From: an uncultured Sphaerobacteraceae bacterium
GTDB taxonomy: Bacteria > Chloroflexota > Chloroflexia > Thermomicrobiales > UBA6265
Direction: 5' to 3'
Assembly: GCA_964461025.1 (NCBI GenBank)
Contig: CAYWSE010000001.1
Coordinates: forward strand, 56,414-120,413
Length of the DNA stretch: 64,000 nt
Numbering within the stretch: position 1 is the first letter of the stretch; the number at the start of each line of letters is the position of its first letter. The notes below the pieces were generated by a model. That model saw only the letters and a list, made by a program, of their open reading frames with translations, searched no databases and was not told where the DNA came from. Of this stretch, positions 3,833-55,953 are shown in pieces. The position numbers were made by a program, and so were the translations under genes.

Positions 3833-4273
3833 TTGGCCGACGATCTCGACAAGCTCTACGACTACATCGTGCGCCAGTACGTCATGAAGGACGAACTGAT
3901 CGACGTGGACCTGTCCGCCTCCGCCACCGAAGAAGGCGACGCCATCGAAAGCGAAAAGCACCAGATCGTCGTTCGCGAAACCGATCACGCCCGCCAGATG
4001 CGCGAATCATTCCGGGCTGGACTCTCCACCGCCTGGCATCTCGAACAGAATGGTTCACAAGAGCTCCGCCTCAGCGATCAGGACCCGGTCGAGAACTCCA
4101 TCGCCGATGCGCTGATCCGCTATCTCGTCAGTTTCGGTCTCGCCGGCTCCCGCACAGAAAAAGTCAGTGACGCGGCCTATACCTACTATATTTCCGTATC
4201 GTGGGACCGGTTGCAGGACATCAGCCGCAAGATTGGCGTCGATCTGCCTCAAACACTCGCCCGGGTCGCCTGA
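3833..4273 (+). CDS. hypothetical protein
   Basis: 146-aa ORF with a TTG start preceded by aaagga. Third-position GC bias matches neighbouring genes. No recognisable motif. Confidence 0.5.
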   Translation: MADDLDKLYDYIVRQYVMKDELIDVDLSASATEEGDAIESEKHQIVVRETDHARQMRESFRAGLSTAWHLEQNGSQELRLSDQDPVENSIADALIRYLVSFGLAGSRTEKVSDAAYTYYISVSWDRLQDISRKIGVDLPQTLARVA

Positions 4274-4296
4274 TCGACGATCGAAGAAAGCCAAAC

Positions 4297-5094
4297 GTGC
4301 CGCGCAAACGTCAATCCGCGCCATCGTCGAAACGCACTGCCACGCCGGCGCAATCGAACCCGGAGCGTCTTCTCGCCGCCCTGCAGATCGAAGGGCGCAA
4401 CATCGAGCTCTATCGCACCGCGCTGACTCATCGCTCCGCCGCCGGCATTGCCTTCACCGGCGACTATCCCTCCAATGAACCAAACGAGCGTCTCGAGTTT
4501 CTCGGCGATGCCCTGATCGGCGCCTATTCCGCTGACGAGCTCTATCGCCGCTTTCCGGACGAACCCGAAGGCATCCTCACCCGGCGGCGCACCGCCATCG
4601 TCCGCACCGAGCAGCTCGCCGCCTGGGCCCAGGAAATCGATCTCGATGACTACATGTATCTCGCTCCGGGCGAGCGTGCTTCCGTCAGTGGCCGCGACCG
4701 CATCCTCGCCGGCGCTTACGAAGCGTTAATCGGTGCGATCTACCTCGACCGAGGATCCCGCATCGCCAGAGCATTTTTCACCCATCAGCTTCGTCGCGAT
4801 CTCGATACGGTTCTCGCGGGGGTGGAAACATCCAACCCTAAGGGCCGCCTCCAGGAGATCACCCAGAATCTCTTCCGCCGCGCTCCCGCCTATCGCACCA
4901 TCGACGCACAAGGCCCCGCACACGCCCGAAATTTCACCGTGGAAGTCCGCTTCGACGGCGGAGTCCTCGCAACCGGCGAAGGCTCCAGCAAACGATCGGC
5001 GGAAGAAGCTGCCGCCACCGCCGCCCTCACCCTCATCGACGACCAGGGCGTCGGTGTTCTATCCCCCCGCTCCCTTCCCCGCACGCTCGATTAA
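4297..5094 (+). CDS. rnc: ribonuclease III
   Basis: RNase III signature ERLEFLGDALIG and EALIGAIYLD. C-terminal dsRBD (NPKGRLQEITQ...GEGSSKRSAEEAAA). GTG 4297 is chosen as the first in-frame start after the upstream stop. Confidence 0.9.
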   Translation: MPRKRQSAPSSKRTATPAQSNPERLLAALQIEGRNIELYRTALTHRSAAGIAFTGDYPSNEPNERLEFLGDALIGAYSADELYRRFPDEPEGILTRRRTAIVRTEQLAAWAQEIDLDDYMYLAPGERASVSGRDRILAGAYEALIGAIYLDRGSRIARAFFTHQLRRDLDTVLAGVETSNPKGRLQEITQNLFRRAPAYRTIDAQGPAHARNFTVEVRFDGGVLATGEGSSKRSAEEAAATAALTLIDDQGVGVLSPRSLPRTLD

Positions 5095-5166: not shown

Positions 5167-5196
5167 GCGTAGCCTCGCCATTTATGGCGCTTTGGC
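5167..5196. repeat. REP-like hairpin, family A variant (GTAGCCTCGCCATTTATGGCG)
   Basis: It shares the GTAGC-head and the CGCCATTTATGGCG palindrome with the copies at 16469 and 55541. Confidence 0.6.
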
Positions 5197-5379: not shown

Positions 5380-6435
5380 GTGGCCAGACTGTTCGACCAG
5401 CTGACCATCTTCGGTGGCAATTCCAATCCTGGTCTGACCGCCGAGATTTGCGACTATCTCGGCCTCCCACAGGGCCGCGCCGAGGTCTTCAAATTCAGCA
5501 ACGACAACACCTTCGTCCGCATCGGCGAAAGCGTTCGCGATCACGACGTCTTCGTCGTCCAGTCCTTCGCTAATCCCATCAACGACTCGATCATGGAACT
5601 CCTCATCATGATCGACACCCTCAAACGAGCCTCGGCCGGCCGCATCACCGCCGTCATTCCCTATTTCGGCTACGGACGCACCGATAAGAAGGACCAGCCC
5701 CGCGTTCCGATCACCGCCCGCCTCGTCGCCAAGCTGATCGGCACATCGGGCGCCGACCGCGTCCTTTCGATCGACCTTCACGCCGGGCAGATTCAGGGCT
5801 TTTTCGACATTCCGGTCGATGAAATGACTGCCATGCCCCTCCTCTGCCGCTATTTCCAGCAACTTCGCCTCGAGCGCCCGGTGGTCGTTTCGCCCGATCT
5901 CGGCAACACCAAACGCGCCCGAAACTTCGCTGAGTTTCTCGATGCCCCCCTCGCCATCATCGAAAAACGCCGTGTCGGAAACGCCGATCGTTCCGAAATT
6001 CTCAACCTGATCGGCTCCGTCGAAGACGCGCAGGTCGTGATCATCGACGACGAAATCGACACGGCTGGATCGATCGCCCAGGCGGCGCAGGTCTGCTTCG
6101 AACAAGGCGCCGCCGAGGTCTACGCTGGTTGCACGCACGCCGTTTTCTCTGGTCCGGCCCTCGAACGCCTCGAAACCAGCCGCATTCGCGAGGTCGTCAT
6201 TTCCAACACCATCGCCCATCCACCGACTCGCCGGCTGGACAAGGTCACTGAACTTTCCGTCGCCCCCCTTCTCGCCGAAACGATCGAACGCATCCATGCC
6301 GGCGCCAGTGTCTCGGCCGCATTTCGCTCGCCCGACGCCCTACCCGACAGTTTTCAGTCCCGCTTGCCTCTCTTCTCTCGCCTCAATGGCTTCGAGAGCC
6401 CGGTCCGCGAGCCAGTCGAGCACACCGGGACCTGA
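5380..6435 (+). CDS. prs: ribose-phosphate pyrophosphokinase
   Basis: LTIFGGNSNPGLTAEI...FSNDNTFVRIGESVRDHDVFVVQS, DLHAGQIQGFF and IIDDEIDTAGS. GTG start with AGGAGG 9 nt upstream. It has a ~30-aa C-terminal extension relative to typical Prs. Confidence 0.9.
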   Translation: MARLFDQLTIFGGNSNPGLTAEICDYLGLPQGRAEVFKFSNDNTFVRIGESVRDHDVFVVQSFANPINDSIMELLIMIDTLKRASAGRITAVIPYFGYGRTDKKDQPRVPITARLVAKLIGTSGADRVLSIDLHAGQIQGFFDIPVDEMTAMPLLCRYFQQLRLERPVVVSPDLGNTKRARNFAEFLDAPLAIIEKRRVGNADRSEILNLIGSVEDAQVVIIDDEIDTAGSIAQAAQVCFEQGAAEVYAGCTHAVFSGPALERLETSRIREVVISNTIAHPPTRRLDKVTELSVAPLLAETIERIHAGASVSAAFRSPDALPDSFQSRLPLFSRLNGFESPVREPVEHTGT

Positions 6436-13300: not shown

Positions 13301-13535
13301 TTCCGCGGGGAGGCCGGCGGGAATTGGTCCGGCGCACCCCCGGATTGCTTCTCTACCTTCCCCGGAAATATCGGCGCACACACGAGGGTGTGAGGGTTCC
13401 GCTCTGACGCTTCCCGCTGCGCGGCAGTCGAAGCGCTTTGACAGAACATGCCTCACCCCTCGACCTCGCAGTCGAACGCATCAGACACCCGCGTCGCGGC
13501 AATGTCATTGAAGTGGGGAGGTGGGAGGCGATTCC

Positions 13536-16385
13536 ATGGAAATCCGCGAACTCGGTACCGGCGACGCCGTGTCCGGAACACTCGACGAATCACCATTCGT
13601 GCTGAAAGCCGGAAATGTCACCAAGCGCGACGGACGCTCCGTCTCGCCCGACATCACCCGCATCGCCAACGCGATCGAAATGGCCTTTCGAGCCGAAGTC
13701 GGTGTGCCCTTTCCTGACCCGCTGCCCTCCGCCATTCACGACCGCACGCTGTCCATCACCAATCAGGTCGTCGAATCGCTGAACTGCCAGTTCGATTCCG
13801 CCCAACCACTTCATGTCGAAACGATTCAGGACGAAGTCGAACAGCAACTGATGGCTGCGGGCGCTTTCGGCGTTGCCAAACGCTACATTCTCTATCGACA
13901 GGCCCGCTCCCAGCTCCGCCAGGAAGCCGCGATCCGCGTCATCGACGATCGTGGCCAGGAATTGCAGCTGCACCGAGCCGTTATCCGCTCCTGGGTCGAT
14001 GAGGTCTGCGCCGGTGTCGACGAAGCCGTCTCGGCCCCCGCCATCGTCGAAGATGTCCTGAACGGCATCTATCCCGGTATCGCCCTCGCCGAGGTGCAGC
14101 AGCTCGTTCTTTACGCTGCCCGCACCCGCATCGAGCAGGACCCCGCCTGGTCGAGCGTCGCCGCTCGCGCTTTGTTGAGCACCCTCTACGCCGAAGTCTT
14201 CGGCCGCCGCGTCGCCATCGCCGACGCTCCCGGTCTCTATGCCGGCGCCTTTTCGTTCTATCTCCGCGACGCCGTCGCCGCCGAGCTCCTCAGCGAAGAG
14301 CTTCTCTCCTACGATCTCGATCTACTCGGCGCCGCGCTGCATCCGGAGCGCGATCTCGATTTCGCCTACCTCGGACTCCAGACCCTTTACGACCGCTACC
14401 TGATCCGCAACGGCGACCGGCGCATCGAGCTCCCCCAGATGCTCTGGATGCGCGTCGCCATGGGATTGGCCATGAATGAAGACGACGCCAACCAGCGCGC
14501 AATCGAGTTCTACGAGCTCCTCTCATCCCTTCGCTTCTGTTCTTCGACGCCGACGCTTTTCAACGCCGGCACCCGTCATCCGCAACTCTCCTCCTGTTAC
14601 CTCACGACCATCGGCGACGACCTCGACCAGATCTTCTCCGGCTTGCGTGACAACGCCCTCCTCTCCAAGTGGAGTGGGGGACTCGGCAACGACTGGACCC
14701 GCGTTCGCGCTCTCGGTAGTGGCATCAAGGGCACCAATGGCCGCAGCCAGGGCGTCGTTCCCTTCCTGAAGGTCGCCAACGACGCCGCGGTCGCGGTCAA
14801 CCAGGGCGGCAAACGCAAGGGCGCGGTCTGCGCCTATCTCGAGACCTGGCATCTCGATATCGAAGAGTTCCTCGAACTGCGCAAGAACACCGGCGACGAC
14901 CGCCGCCGCACCCACGATATGAACACCGCCAACTGGGTGCCCGATCTCTTTATGCAACGAGTCAAGGAGGACGGACCGTGGACCCTCTTCAGCCCCGACG
15001 ACGTCCCCGACCTGCACGATCTCTATGGCAAGGCCTTCGCCGCCCGCTACCAGGCCTGCGAAGCCGCAGCGGCTCGCGGTGAAATCCGTCTCAGCCGAAC
15101 GGTGCGCGCCGTCGATCTCTGGCGCAAGATGCTCACCGCTCTCTTCGAAACCGGACACCCCTGGATCACCTTCAAGGACCCCTCGAACGTCCGCACCCCG
15201 CAGGATCACACCGGCGTCGTCCACAGCTCGAATCTCTGCACCGAGATCCTTCTCAACACCAGCGACGACGAAGTTGCCGTCTGCAATCTCGGTTCGGTCA
15301 ATCTCGCTGCCCACATCGTTGATGGCCGCCTCGATCTCGAATCGCTGCACACCACCATCCGCACCGCCGTGCGCATGCTCGACAACGTCATCGACATCAA
15401 CTTCTACCCGATCCCGGAAGCGCGCAACGCCAACCTTCGCCACCGGCCAGTCGGACTTGGCCTCATGGGCTTCCAGGACACCCTTTACGCGCTTGGGTAT
15501 TCCTATGCCTCGGAGGAAGCAGTTGCCTTTGCCGGCCAAAGCATGGAAGCGATTGCCTGGTCCGCACTCCTCGCCTCATCCGAGCTCGCTGCCGAGCGTG
15601 GCGCCTATGAGTCCTATCGCGAATCGAAATGGGACCGCGGCCTTCTCCCTCAGGACACCATCCAGCTCCTCAGCGACGAGCGCGGCTCGCCAATCGACGT
15701 TCCCATCGAACCAACTCTCGATTGGGAGGTTGTGCGCCGTTCGATCCAGCGACATGGCATGCGCAACAGCAACGTCATGGCCATCGCCCCCACCGCGACG
15801 ATTTCCAACATCACCGGCGTCAGTCAGTCGATCGAACCCGCCTTCTCCAATCTCTACGTCAAGAGCAATCTCTCCGGCGAGTTCACCGTCGTCAACTAAT
15901 TCCTCGTCCGCGATTTGAAGGAGCGCGGTCTCTGGGACGCCGAGATGCTCGACGATCTCAAGCATCACGACGGCTCCCTTCAGGAGATCGACCGCATCCC
16001 GCAAGACCTCCGCGACCGCTACCTCACTGCCTTCGAAATCGACTCATCCTGGCTGCTCGCCGCCGCGGCCCGCCGCCAGGTCTGGATCGACATGGGCCAG
16101 TCGCTCAACCTCTATTCCGCCGGCGCCAGTGGTCGCAAGCTCAACGACATGTACCTCTCCGCCTGGGAACAGGGGCTGAAAACCACCTACTACCTGCGCA
16201 GCAACGGCGCGACCCAGGCCGAGAAGTCGACATTGGACATCAACGCCCGCGGTCTTCAACCCCGCTGGATGAAGTCCCGCAGCGCCTCCGCCGACGTCGT
16301 CATCGACCGCGAACCGACCATCGACGACTACCCCATCGGCGCCTCCTGCTCCCTCGACGGCAGCGACTGCGAGGCCTGCCAATGA
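13536..16385 (+). pseudogene. nrdA: class Ia ribonucleotide reductase alpha subunit interrupted by one in-frame TAA (15897-15899)
   Basis: ATP-cone-like N-terminus (VTKRDGRSVSPDITRIANAIE) and catalytic core (SSCYLTT, SNLCTEI, AIAPTATISNI). The sequence reads ...GEFTVVN-TAA-FLVRDLKERGLWD... and continues in the same frame to TTYYLRS and the C-terminal Cys-rich tail CSLDGSDCEAC. ATG 13536 has GGAGG 7 nt upstream. Confidence 0.88.
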
Positions 16386-16468: not shown

Positions 16469-16492
16469 CGTAGCGTCGCCATAAATGGCGAC
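16469..16492. repeat. REP-like hairpin, family A (CGTAGCGTCGCCATAAATGGCGAC)
   Basis: The same sequence occurs three times inside the RAYT gene at 55472-55639. This copy lies in the nrdA-nrdB spacer. Confidence 0.8.
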
Positions 16493-16533
16493 TTCCCACC
16501 GAAACGATGCTCTATCAACGAGGAATCCAATCA

Positions 16534-52882: not shown

Positions 52883-53875
52883 TTGATCCGCTATCTTCTT
52901 GAACGGAAGCGGATCGATCCCGCGGAATCGCCTGCTATTCACGTGCTCGGCGGCGGCGTCTCCAATCGCACCGTGCTCGTCGAACGGCAGACCGGCGAAG
53001 CATGGGTGCTTAAGCAGGCCCTGGCCAAGCTGCGCGTGCAGGTCGACTGGTTCTCCCCGCCGGAACGCGTCCATCGCGAAGCCGATGGGTTGCGCTGGCT
53101 TGCCCAGCTGGCGCCGCCGGGTACGATCACGCCACTGATCTTCGAAGATTTCGGCCATCACCTGATCGCCATGCAGGCGGTGCCGCGACCGCACCAGAAC
53201 TGGAAGTCGATGTTACTGGCAGGCGATGTTCGCCCGGAGCATGTCGAGCAATTCGCCACGCTCCTGGGAACCATCCACACCCGCAGCAACGAGCGCCTGG
53301 AGGAACTGCGTCCCGTCTTCAGCGATCGCGGATACTTTGAGTCACTGCGACTCGAACCCTATTACGGCTACACCGCCACCCAGGTTCCGGAAGCAGAACG
53401 GTTCCTGCGTGATCTCATGGAAACGAGATCGCATGCCGTAACCATCGTCCACGGCGACTATAGCCCCAAAAATGTCCTCGTCCACGACGGTCGTCTGATC
53501 CTGCTCGACCATGAAGTGATCCACGTCGGCGATCCCTGTTTCGATCTTGGGTTCTCGATGACCCATTTGCTGAGCAAAGCCCATCACCTCAGAGAGTGGA
53601 GAGCGGCATTCACACAAGCGACCTTCGCTTATTGGAATACGTACTGGAATATCGTAAGAACGAGTTCCTGGGCGGAAAATCTCGAATCACGAGCTGTGCG
53701 GCACACCCTTGGCTGCCTGCTGGCCCGGGCGCGGGGACGGTCGCCGCTGGAATACCTGGATGAGGACGAGCGCGCCCGGCAGGCGAGTGTTGTCGTGGCG
53801 CTGATGGCCGACCCTCCGGCGACGATCGAGGACCTGACCGATCGCTTCATCACCGGTGTCGCGGAAAAGGAGTAA
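52883..53875 (+). CDS. phosphotransferase-family kinase (APH/ChoK-like, MtnK-like)
   Basis: GGGVSNRTVLV, IVHGDYSPKNVLV and DHEVIHVGDPCFDLGF. The start is TTG. The frame is open upstream to 52796, so the start is uncertain. Confidence 0.72.
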   Translation: MIRYLLERKRIDPAESPAIHVLGGGVSNRTVLVERQTGEAWVLKQALAKLRVQVDWFSPPERVHREADGLRWLAQLAPPGTITPLIFEDFGHHLIAMQAVPRPHQNWKSMLLAGDVRPEHVEQFATLLGTIHTRSNERLEELRPVFSDRGYFESLRLEPYYGYTATQVPEAERFLRDLMETRSHAVTIVHGDYSPKNVLVHDGRLILLDHEVIHVGDPCFDLGFSMTHLLSKAHHLREWRAAFTQATFAYWNTYWNIVRTSSWAENLESRAVRHTLGCLLARARGRSPLEYLDEDERARQASVVVALMADPPATIEDLTDRFITGVAEKE

Positions 53876-53879
53876 CGAC

Positions 53880-55169
53880 GTGCCTGCGATTTCGCGGCTC
53901 ACCGCACTGGAAATCCTCGATAGCCGCGGCCGGCCGACCGTGCAAACGACCTGCCGGCTGGCGAGCGGCGCGGCAAAAACAGTGTCGGTGCCGTCTGGCG
54001 CGTCGACCGGACTGGCCGAAGCGCACGAGCTCCGCGACGGCGACCCCGGCCGCTATGGCGGGCTGGGATGTCGTCAGGCCGTCAATCATGTCGAAGTCGA
54101 GTTGAACGATGCCTTGCAGGGCCGGCAATTCGACACCCAGCATCAGCTCGATGAGGCGATGATCGCGCTGGATGGAACGGAAAATCTCTCTCGCCTGGGC
54201 GCCAACGCGGTGCTATCGGTGTCTCTGGCATTCGCTCGGGCAACGGCTGCCGAGCGAGAGGTACCGTTATACGAGCATTTTCGCGAATTGACGGGGCAGA
54301 CACAGGGGTCCGCAGCGACACACAGATCAACCCTCCCTCGACCAACGGTCAATCTCTTCAGCGGCGGCAAGCACGCAGGTGGCCAGATGGAGCTGCAGGA
54401 CGTGCTCATCGTCGCCAACGGCGCTGGTTCGGTCGACGACGCCATGGCCATGACCTACGCCGTCTACCAGGCCGCCGCGCGGCTCATCCGCAAGCAATAC
54501 GGCATGCGGTTGCTGGTGGCGGACGAGGGAGGTCTGGCTCCCGATTTTGGGTCGGTCGAAGCAGCGCTCGATCTGGCGGTCGAAGCAATCGGCGCGGCCG
54601 GTTACGAACCGGGCGCCGACGTGTCGCTCTGCATCGACGTTGCGGCAAGCCTCTTCCAGCAGGACGGCATGTACGCAATTGGCGGACGGACGTTTGACGC
54701 GATGGGGATGGTGGCGCTGATCGCGCAGTGGGTCGAGGAGTTCCCGATCGTCAGCGTCGAGGATGGTCTGGGAGAAGATGACTGGCACGCCTGGCCCGAG
54801 CTGCGTTCGGCCCTGGCGGGCAAGGCGCTCACGCTCGGCGATGACCTGCTGACCACAAACCCGGCGCGGATCGAGCGGGCGATCGAATCACGGGCAGCCG
54901 ATGCCTTGTTGTTGAAAGTCAATCAGATCGGCACGCTGACCCAAGCGGCCCAGGCTCTTTCGCTGGCGCGAGAGGCGGGCTGGAAGGTGGTCGTCAGCGC
55001 CCGCTCGGGCGAAACTGAGGACGACTGGCTGAGTGACCTGGCCGTTGGCTGGAGCGGCGACGCCCTCAAAGTCGGCTCGATCACCCGCAGCGAACGCCTC
55101 GCCAAATGGAACCGCCTGCTCGCCATCGAAAAAGAAACCGCCCTGCCACTAACCACCTGGCCAGCGTGA
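53880..55169 (+). CDS. eno: enolase-family protein
   Basis: ILDSRGRPTVQT, SGASTGLAEAHELRD, ADEGGLAP, KVNQIGTLTQ and SARSGETED. GTG 53880 has AAGGAG upstream and lies 5 nt after the kinase stop. Confidence 0.85.
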   Translation: MPAISRLTALEILDSRGRPTVQTTCRLASGAAKTVSVPSGASTGLAEAHELRDGDPGRYGGLGCRQAVNHVEVELNDALQGRQFDTQHQLDEAMIALDGTENLSRLGANAVLSVSLAFARATAAEREVPLYEHFRELTGQTQGSAATHRSTLPRPTVNLFSGGKHAGGQMELQDVLIVANGAGSVDDAMAMTYAVYQAAARLIRKQYGMRLLVADEGGLAPDFGSVEAALDLAVEAIGAAGYEPGADVSLCIDVAASLFQQDGMYAIGGRTFDAMGMVALIAQWVEEFPIVSVEDGLGEDDWHAWPELRSALAGKALTLGDDLLTTNPARIERAIESRAADALLLKVNQIGTLTQAAQALSLAREAGWKVVVSARSGETEDDWLSDLAVGWSGDALKVGSITRSERLAKWNRLLAIEKETALPLTTWPA

Positions 55170-55907
55170 ATGCGCCAGAATCGGGAGTCGCTCCGGTACA
55201 GGGGATACGACTACACACATCCGAGCGCGTATGCGTTCACGGTTGTTGTCCGTGATCGTGCATGTCGTCTTGGACGAATACATGAGATGGTGTTCAAGGC
55301 AACTCTCGCAGGAGCAACCGTGCTCAACGTATGGGAGTCGCTGCCGAAGAGATTTCCACGCATCCTGCTGGATGCGTTCGTAGTCATGCCCAACCATATC
55401 CATGGGATTGTGTTTCTGGGAGGCACACCGATCGATAATCTGGACGATCTCGTCGACACAACGACCCCATCCGTAGCGTCGCCATTTGTGGCCATCGGCG
55501 CATCTGAGCAGAACGAATCCCAGACTCCACGAACACCGTCCGTAGCGTCGCCATTTATGGCGACTGATGCGTTGGCGATGAACGTTCCTCGAACCTTAGC
55601 GCCGTCTGGCGAGACAGTCGCCATAAATGGCGACGCTACAAAATCGGCTGCGGTACGCGGGCGACGACCTCCAGTTCCACCGGTCCGTGATCAGGCCATG
55701 CCAGCGCTCGGTGAGATCGTTCGTTCGTTGAAGGCCGCGTCAACGACAAGGATTCGCAAGGAAATCGATCCTCAGTTTGCATGGCAGGAAGGGTACTGGG
55801 ACCGCATCATCCGCAATGATGCCGAACTGGAGCGGTATCGGGCATACATCGAAAACAATCCTGCGCGTTGGGAAGAAGACAGGGAATACCTAAAGGGGGA
55901 TTGGTAG
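55170..55907 (+). CDS. REP-associated tyrosine transposase (RAYT, IS200-like) with extended linker
   Basis: YAFTVVVRDRACRLG N-terminus. HUH motif VVMPNHIHGIVFL. Tyr motif FAWQEGYWDRIIRNDAELERYRAYIENNP. An ~85-aa linker contains three family A REP sequences. Confidence 0.82.
   Translation: MRQNRESLRYRGYDYTHPSAYAFTVVVRDRACRLGRIHEMVFKATLAGATVLNVWESLPKRFPRILLDAFVVMPNHIHGIVFLGGTPIDNLDDLVDTTTPSVASPFVAIGASEQNESQTPRTPSVASPFMATDALAMNVPRTLAPSGETVAINGDATKSAAVRGRRPPVPPVRDQAMPALGEIVRSLKAASTTRIRKEIDPQFAWQEGYWDRIIRNDAELERYRAYIENNPARWEEDREYLKGDW
55472..55639. repeat. three family A REP units inside the RAYT coding sequence
   Basis: CGTAGCGTCGCCATTTGTGGCC at 55472-55493. CGTAGCGTCGCCATTTATGGCGAC at 55541-55564. 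The inverted copy GTCGCCATAAATGGCGACGCTAC at 55617-55639. Confidence 0.85.
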
Positions 55908-55935
55908 GAGATACCAACGGTCGATTGCGGGGTCA

Positions 55936-55953
55936 AGCGCCATTAATGGCGCT
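55936..55953. repeat. perfect 18-bp palindrome AGCGCCATTAATGGCGCT (family A-related)
   Basis: It is self-complementary, lies 29 nt after the RAYT stop, and shares the CGCCAT..ATGGCG core. Confidence 0.7.

Follow-up and report, generated by a model that had tools for sequence, protein, structure and literature searches.

The stretch analysed here, called the window, comprises 64,000 nucleotides of DNA from an uncultured Sphaerobacteraceae bacterium (GenBank assembly GCA_964461025.1, contig CAYWSE010000001.1). It contains one gene for a REP-associated tyrosine transposase (RAYT, also TnpA_REP; REP, repetitive extragenic palindrome), which lies at 55170..55907 on the + strand as an intact open reading frame (ORF) of 245 aa and is of the subclass 2.4 type. 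Three in-frame copies of a REP family, which also occurs in two intergenic spacers of the window, lie inside its coding sequence. The start codon of the gene adjoined the stop codon of an upstream enolase gene (TGAATG, 55167-55172). This enolase gene (53856..55169, + strand; Pfam Enolase_N and Enolase_C) was the conserved upstream neighbour of the RAYT clade. The identical 245-aa protein was encoded in two independent Logan assemblies, and an assembly artefact is therefore unlikely. The deposited gene call (NCBI and Logan; protein P0001, 55320-55907) began at an internal GTG and comprised 195 aa, omitting 50 N-terminal residues that aligned well with all homologues. On this alignment, the deposited RAYT annotation is probably too short.

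The original prediction had recognized the ORF as a RAYT from its motifs, and this identity held. The HUH motif (H76-I77-H78 in PNHIHGIV, 55395..55403, + strand) was placed on strand beta3 (residues 76-83) by the structural model. NHIH occupied residues 75-78, and H76 and H78 were invariant in an alignment of 119 sequences. In the same alignment W205 was invariant and Q206 near-invariant; this WQ motif (55782..55787, + strand) aligned with W94-Q95 of the Escherichia coli TnpA_REP structure, PDB 4ER8. The Y motif YIENNP (residues 226-231, 55845..55862, + strand) aligned with Y115-I-Y-I-N-P of 4ER8, so that Y226 (nt 55845-55847), the presumed catalytic tyrosine, corresponded to the catalytic Y115. 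The protein ended 14 residues past YIENNP and carried no further Pfam or NCBIfam domain.

Profile and fold comparisons pointed in the same direction. Pfam Y1_Tnp matched the protein with 23.9 bits (cutoff 23), which rose to 29.7 bits once the variable loop described below was removed. The best NCBIfam match was NF047646 (REP_Tyr_transpos) with 49.4 bits, under its equivalog cutoff of 80, and the score after loop removal was 59.7 bits. Relatives with REP-free loops scored 56-66 bits, also under 80, which indicated that this model does not reach the present RAYT clade. In the profile search 4ER8 was the only sequence relative in the PDB, while a PDB search with the RAYT protein as a single sequence returned zero matches. 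Foldseek placed 4ER8_A (TnpA_REP bound to a REP hairpin) at the top with E = 1.9e-5, followed by the ISDra2 and IS608 transposases, so that 4ER8 was the best relative both by sequence and by fold. An IS200/IS605 transposase (TnpA_IS200, subclass 1.1) was also considered and rejected: NCBIfam transpos_IS200 reached 18 bits against a cutoff of 55, the Y motif was YIENNP and not Y---Q, and the gene was syntenic and present once in the window.

The REP family, here called family A, was defined by the 23-nt motif GTAGCGTCGCCATTTATGGCGAC, and the window was scanned at up to 3 mismatches. Five matches were found, compared to 0.00 expected from 100 shuffles. A family-A unit consists of a 7-bp stem starting G-C, T-A, C-G, with a 4-nt loop and a GTAG head one base from the stem. 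Three of the five matches were the units in the RAYT gene, all in frame 0 and stop-free. Unit 1 (GTAGCGTCGCCATTTGTGGCCAT, 55473..55495, + strand) was degenerate, with 3 mismatches to the family consensus, and encoded VASPFVAI. Unit 2 (55542..55564, + strand) matched the motif exactly, had a 7-bp hairpin and encoded VASPFMAT. Unit 3 was inverted (55617..55639, - strand, reading GTCGCCATAAATGGCGACGCTAC on the coding strand), was likewise an exact match and encoded VAINGDAT. Units 2 and 3 formed a perfect 25-nt inverted repeat (55542-55566 / 55615-55639), with 48 nt between the 25-nt arms and 52 nt between the 23-nt units. They thus constituted a REPIN-like doublet (REPIN, REP doublet forming a hairpin) with the GTAG heads outward.

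The region 55460-55650 folded as one long hairpin, with z = -4.85 for RNA and -5.0 for DNA and an RNA energy of -78 kcal/mol; folding the mRNA across the units had been proposed as a check in the original prediction. Taken singly, unit 1 had a hairpin z of 0.12, a decayed value, and unit 2 had -3.2; units 2 and 3 and the copy at 16470 ranged from -3.2 to -4.8. The positions of the three units, their open frame and the inverted doublet with its 52-nt spacer were all as predicted from the letters, and so were the copies outside genes. The first of these, GTAGCGTCGCCATAAATGGCGAC (16470..16492, + strand; hairpin z = -3.96), was located in the nrdA-nrdB spacer, between the end of nrdA at 16385 and the start of nrdB at 16507. 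The second was a variant, GTAGCCTCGCCATTTATGGCGCT (5169..5191, + strand), with a weaker 5-bp hairpin in the spacer between rnc (4201-5094) and prs (5380-6435). Extragenic family-A copies therefore numbered two in 64 kb, both of the GTAG-REP type. The perfect palindrome that had been noted behind the gene, AGCGCCATTAATGGCGCT (55936..55953; hairpin z = -2.45), was present, though without a GTAG head. It began 29 nt past the RAYT stop codon, where the orthologues have a flanking family-A REP or doublet. In the flanks of the window RAYT gene, no REP was found upstream, and downstream there was only this palindrome.

A collection of genome contigs was scanned with GTAGCGNCGCCATNNATGGCGNC. Related metagenome-assembled genomes (MAGs) in it contained 3-17 exact copies each, compared to about 1e-5 expected by chance. 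The source genome of the window lay outside this collection, as no locus with a +/- pair 75 nt apart was present. The same GTAGCGNCGCCATNNATGGCGNC was also multi-copy in several Pantoea and Erwinia genomes (L004, L011, L021, L035, L045, L050, L065, L066, L068, L071, L074 and L081), whose hosts are unrelated to the Chloroflexota ones. REP sequences may have converged here, or the RAYTs may have a specificity in common; these copies were treated as unrelated look-alikes.

All three units lay in the loop between beta3 and helix alphaC, residues 84-179 (55419..55706, + strand), as delimited in an AlphaFold2 model built from the 119-sequence alignment; a run with 17 sequences (pLDDT, predicted local distance difference test, of 48) was too poor to use. 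In the model the loop sat between a strand at 76-83 and a helix at 180-198. Its residues had no predicted secondary structure, and the block-mean pLDDT over 91-160 was 41-58, while most of residues 20-85 and 180-235 in the core exceeded 90. The loop is thus probably disordered in this model. Its length ranged from 10 to 151 aa in 184 relatives, and in the window protein it was about 40 residues longer than in the orthologues, with a HuH-Y distance of 148 aa. The original prediction had described the linker as encoded largely by REP DNA, which was overstated: the three units account for 69 of about 290 loop nt, and for about 55 of about 96 residues when the doublet spacer is added.

Relatives without any REP in the loop also existed (P0026, P0036, P0038, P0076/L171). 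The loop of L171 was short and REP-free, yet its gene formed a classic REPtron, flanked on both sides by GTAGGGGCGGGTTTGAAACCCGCCC doublets. Since such relatives form REPtrons, the in-gene REPs are not required. The L171 contig also carried, at 2230-2304, an unrelated perfect 25-nt inverted repeat of GTTCAAAGTTC units, downstream of an epimerase-like gene and near the REP-free RAYT relative.

The closest homologues, from metagenomes and MAGs at about 50% identity, carried the peptides VAINGDAT ... VASPFMAT in the same loop, and these peptides represented the family-A REP as a (-)(+) pair. Orthologues that had the linker but lacked REP palindromes in it would have spoken against the original prediction; the orthologues did carry the palindromes there. 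The orthologue DNA compared comprised L164-L170, L084, L017, L020 and L039, while the relatives P0003, P0017 and P0036 entered without DNA. An enolase gene followed by the RAYT gene was found in 12 of the 12 orthologous contexts examined, which indicates vertical inheritance. Overlap of the two genes at their stop and start codons was frequent, with 8 nt in L166 (2189-2196) and 4 nt in L168 (3478-3481), and this arrangement suggests that RAYT may be co-transcribed with enolase. As RAYT abuts or overlaps enolase, flanking REPs could not be accommodated upstream; downstream of RAYT the orthologues had clear family-A REPs. Wherever the upstream flank was visible, the order of a kinase-like (APH) gene, enolase and RAYT was kept. 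Two orthologues were damaged. That of L039 (2497-2940) was truncated right behind its first in-gene REP, with an ABC-transporter gene next, which hints at a REP-mediated deletion. That of L017 (5418-6258) was frameshifted past the alphaC helix, which may be a sequencing error.

The layout of the window gene differed from that of its orthologues. In these the pair was (-)(+), with GTAG heads inward and about 13 residues past the HUH motif, compared to (+)(+)(-) in the window. Unit 2 aligned with the (+) unit of the orthologues, VASPFMAT. Unit 3 complemented unit 2 perfectly, including two bases beyond the family consensus, and this suggests that unit 3 is a newer inverted partner derived from a recent event. 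Unit 1 is, by its sequence, a decaying extra copy, and the whole arrangement is apparently derived from the usual (-)(+) pair. The (+,-) layout of units 2 and 3 also occurred in extragenic doublets of related MAGs, and no spacer similarity of the window doublet to these doublets was found.

The in-gene units were conserved as DNA and not only as protein. Among nine aligned orthologues, the mean pairwise codon identity at residues with four- or sixfold degenerate codons was 0.96 in unit columns (n=7), compared to 0.30 at equally conserved residues elsewhere (n=50, maximum 0.58; Mann-Whitney p = 1e-5). The conservation of synonymous sites ended at the REP border, and the base after ..GCTAC was free. 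GTAG was invariant in 23 of the 23 in-gene units, and the 7-bp stem was paired in 91% of cells. Two stem pairs switched by compensatory change, U-A to C-G and C-G to G-C, and the encoded amino acids were altered with them (S to P, D to G, P to R and M to I). The spacers and the remaining loop varied freely in length and sequence.

The in-gene units also resembled the REPs lying immediately behind their own gene, with which they had lineage variants in common. In L166 a CCGCC/GGCGG stem was found in all three copies, L167 had two distinct variants, each both within and outside the gene, and in L164 a GTAGTC head was found both within and outside the gene. In-gene units differed from extragenic copies by 1.6 mismatches on the same contig and by 3.2 on other contigs (permutation p = 0.0014). 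Similarly, the two units of one gene differed by 1.4 mismatches from each other and by 3.1 from the units of other genomes (permutation p = 1e-4). Judged by these sequence comparisons, the in-gene units behave as live members of a REP population and not as decaying relics.

The pattern extended to more distant relatives, whose loop peptides were likewise derived from palindromes (VGAQFIAP...GAMNRAPT, VGAGLKPAPT, VGATPRGRP...GQPRGVAPT and VGAKNFSPL). Among 73 distinct related RAYT ORFs, the loop contained a perfect hairpin of 7 bp or more in 66 and a GTAG/CTAC-tagged one in 55. The density of tagged hairpins was 5.72 per kb in the loop and 0.18 per kb in the remaining ORF. Loop 12-mers recurred outside the ORF on the same contig in 4.3% of cases, compared to 0.52% for other ORF parts (odds ratio 8.5), and the recurring segments were GTAG-headed palindromes. 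In the 73 ORFs GTAG was never in the frame that reads TAG, while several other frames occurred, and this suggests that the insertions were independent and that selection filtered them. A REP-tail peptide abutted the helix (...APT|LGEIVR) in 49 of 184 linkers. Most of this count comes from one related clade (VGAQFIAP...GAMNRAPT), and it was therefore set aside as independent evidence for a targeted insertion site. Many metagenomic relatives contained tandem arrays of short units in the same loop, of up to about 180 residues (L128 and L140 with GGRPDA x6, L153 and L158 with RRNIASP x4, and also L142, L111, L116 and L150). These look like REP arrays of the bacterial interspersed mosaic element (BIME) kind growing within the coding sequence.

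The presence of REPs inside a RAYT gene had appeared to be special to the window gene, but the literature already knows it as a hallmark. Quentin, Siguier, Chandler and Fichant (2018; BMC Genomics 19:475, PMC6006769) described in-frame REPs in the gene as typical of TnpA_REP subclass 2.4, which corresponds to Group 4 in the RAYT classification by Bertels et al. (2017). In this subclass a highly variable insertion lies between beta3 and alphaC, and it was read as a peripheral extension that hardly affects activity (PMC6006769). The signature given in their Table 1 is NH[IFV]H, WQ, YIxNNP, no tail domain, a variable insert between beta3 and alphaC and REPs "inserted in tnpAREP," and W94-Q95 of TnpA_REP is among the GTAG-binding residues of their Fig. 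S11 (PMC6006769). The window protein agreed with this signature in NHIH, WQ, YIENNP, the missing C-terminal tail and the variable beta3-alphaC insert. The window gene agreed in its in-frame REPs, while the flank was a weaker match, with only a palindrome without the GTAG head. There were also differences. The host is Chloroflexota/Thermomicrobia-like, and neither the taxon nor the family-A sequence is in the REP table of Quentin et al. The family-A REP is shorter than the "long" (three G-C pairs at the stem base) and "double foot" types, although some lineage variants (GCCGCC, GGCGCC) do start with three G:C pairs. Furthermore, the window gene directly follows an enolase gene, to which it is closely linked, and has no upstream REP, and its HuH-Y distance of 148 aa exceeds the subclass median of 88.

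Other known systems were similar in part. The E. coli REPtron (YafM/RayT, 4ER8; Nunvar 2010; Messing 2012; Ton-Hoang 2012; Corneloup 2021) shares the Y1 HUH fold, the tyrosine on the YIxxNP helix, the GTAG-contacting WQ residues and the GTAG-headed hairpins near the gene. It differs in that beta3 and alphaC are joined by only a short connection in the E. coli enzyme (subclass 2.2, Group 2), which also has a C-terminal extension, and in that the REPs are long and bulged, with none within the coding sequence of the enzyme. The window units correspond to the GTAG REP family of Di Nocera et al. (2013) in that a GC-rich stem-loop comes after a GTAG tag at the 5' end. Intragenic REPs and Rickettsia palindromic elements (RPEs) are likewise in-frame GTAG REPs or dimers, and they encode 20-80 extra residues in proteins that are probably still functional (Di Nocera et al., 2013; PMC3733652). 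However, those elements are scattered in unrelated genes (uvrA, recB, dnaE and others) at non-conserved sites, whereas here the REPs lie in the gene of their own presumed enzyme, at a site conserved throughout the clade. No transposase was found among the intragenic-REP hosts in the supplementary files of Di Nocera et al. that were searched (PMC3733652). Units 2 and 3 resemble REPINs (Bertels and Rainey, 2011) as inverted REPs with a short, variable spacer that form one long hairpin, but they lie within a coding sequence, and their spacer is unrelated to those of the extragenic doublets in related MAGs. In literature searches, in-gene REPs were not mentioned in Nunvar 2010, Di Nocera 2013, Bertels 2017, Corneloup 2021 or Bertels and Rainey. 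The freezing of synonymous sites, the compensatory stem changes and the concerted evolution were not found in the text of Quentin et al. (2018), although no search was aimed at them.

A separate observation concerned nrdA (13521-16385), the gene for the large subunit of ribonucleotide reductase, which contained an in-frame TAA at 15897-15899. The homology to the ribonucleotide reductase barrel spanned this codon in the same frame, with profile positions 1-423 before and 431-523 after it. It could be a sequencing error, or nrdA could be a pseudogene or a split gene.

Taken together, we favour with reasonable though limited confidence the reading that the window gene is a single-copy, vertically inherited subclass 2.4 RAYT whose tolerant surface loop holds its own in-frame, live GTAG-REPs. 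Since the enzyme can do without the loop, for which no structure is predicted, a stop-free REP landing there would spare the enzyme. A preference of the enzyme for acting near its own locus would bring REPs to the RAYT gene and its surroundings, and only stop-free insertions in the loop would survive. The resident units would then stay in step with local REPs through REP-for-REP exchange, for which there are two candidate routes: RAYT could cleave and transfer strands in cis on single-stranded DNA, or short tracts could undergo gene conversion. Both routes preserve length, so the reading frame would be kept, and a dedicated function of the in-gene copies would not be needed. Of the two options in the original prediction, self-targeting or autoregulation and a linker that tolerates REPs, the tolerant linker was the better supported, by the low pLDDT and variable length of the loop, the REP-free loop of L171 and the same reading in Quentin et al. 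(2018).

Several points weigh against this reading. Units at orthologous positions are nearly unchanged as DNA in genes of about 50% identity, and a passive passenger would need continuous homogenisation to remain so; selection for a function in cis would explain these units equally well. A unit of 23 nt is short for RecA-dependent gene conversion. To our knowledge, RAYT-mediated REP exchange is undemonstrated for subclass 2.4. The 3-17 exact copies in each related MAG are a low number for a classical REP family, and the disorder of the loop is an AlphaFold2 prediction and not a solved structure. Two hints bear on the history of the three units. A "TPRT" spacer common to the window and P0002/L164 may mark unit 2 as the ancestral (+) unit, preceded by a decayed (-) unit, and a 69-nt direct repeat in the window hints at a duplication, but this repeat is only about 55% identical outside the REP.

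The reading that the in-gene REPs are selected functional parts, either an autoregulatory binding or roadblock site on the own gene or mRNA or a protected template copy, is a minority view to which we give some weight. It would explain the persistence at orthologous positions, the frozen synonymous sites and the co-variation with external REPs. The regulatory form is a tentative possibility. In it RAYT would bind the hairpins of its own gene on single-stranded DNA or, as a variant, transcription, translation or RNA decay would be hindered by the 25-bp hairpin of the mRNA. If true, it would tie the level of a potentially toxic nuclease to its substrate. The nucleotide conservation at orthologous positions across deep orthologues, the compensatory changes that keep the hairpin at an amino-acid cost and the very stable mRNA hairpin (z = -4.85) all agree with it, as does the close junction with enolase, which precludes flanking REPs upstream. 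Nucleotide conservation and concerted evolution fit self-targeting or autoregulation and homogenisation with neighbouring REPs equally well. What counts against regulation is that the relatives with REP-free loops named above are still classic REPtrons, that units differ freely in number, order, orientation and spacing, also when the window is compared with its orthologues, and that unit 1 of the window and both L164 units are decaying.

A protected master or seed copy, whose loss would cost the enzyme and which would be co-inherited with it while extragenic REPINs were copied from the doublet, appears improbable. The downstream doublets of L164 and L165 do repeat the in-gene (-)(+) architecture at a spacing of 32-33 nt, and lineage-specific variants are common to in-gene and flanking copies, but the data do not give the direction of copying. 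In-gene and extragenic doublet spacers were unrelated, that of the window (+,-) doublet being without similarity to the extragenic doublets of related MAGs, and the in-gene units of L164 looked more decayed than the flanking ones.

It is also improbable, and we rate it a little lower, that the RAYT is decaying, inactivated by REP insertions with the frame open only by chance. The truncated L039 and frameshifted L017 orthologues and the unusually long window loop would suit such a history. In contrast, all catalytic and near-invariant residues were intact, the core was modelled at pLDDT > 90 and the three units were in frame and stop-free. The variation at synonymous sites in the conserved protein blocks indicates purifying selection on the protein, and the identical sequence was recovered in two independent assemblies. 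The idea that VASPFMAT and VAINGDAT form a functional protein motif, with the extragenic copies as gene fragments and not REPs, has the conservation of the peptides among orthologues in its favour but very little chance of being right, as it is effectively refuted by the synonymous sites, whose conservation stops at the REP border, and by the compensatory changes, in which the amino acids change whenever the stem does; besides, no structure is predicted for the loop, and the extragenic copies, just 23 nt in length, were found in both orientations within unrelated spacers (rnc-prs, nrdA-nrdB) and have GTAG heads and hairpins.

The in-gene REPs are real, and the basic phenomenon, already published in 2018, is here confirmed in a new lineage. 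The freezing of synonymous sites, the compensatory stems and the concerted evolution appear to be additions to it, and they indicate that the embedded REPs are actively maintained. In practical terms, the cognate REP of a subclass 2.4 RAYT can be read from its coding sequence, even on a metagenomic contig of 1-2 kb. The enolase-linked Chloroflexota clade, with its fixed position, offers a tractable natural series for the study of whether the REPs of its own locus are acted on by a RAYT in cis, and the same clade is suited to asking whether the embedded hairpins regulate the enzyme.

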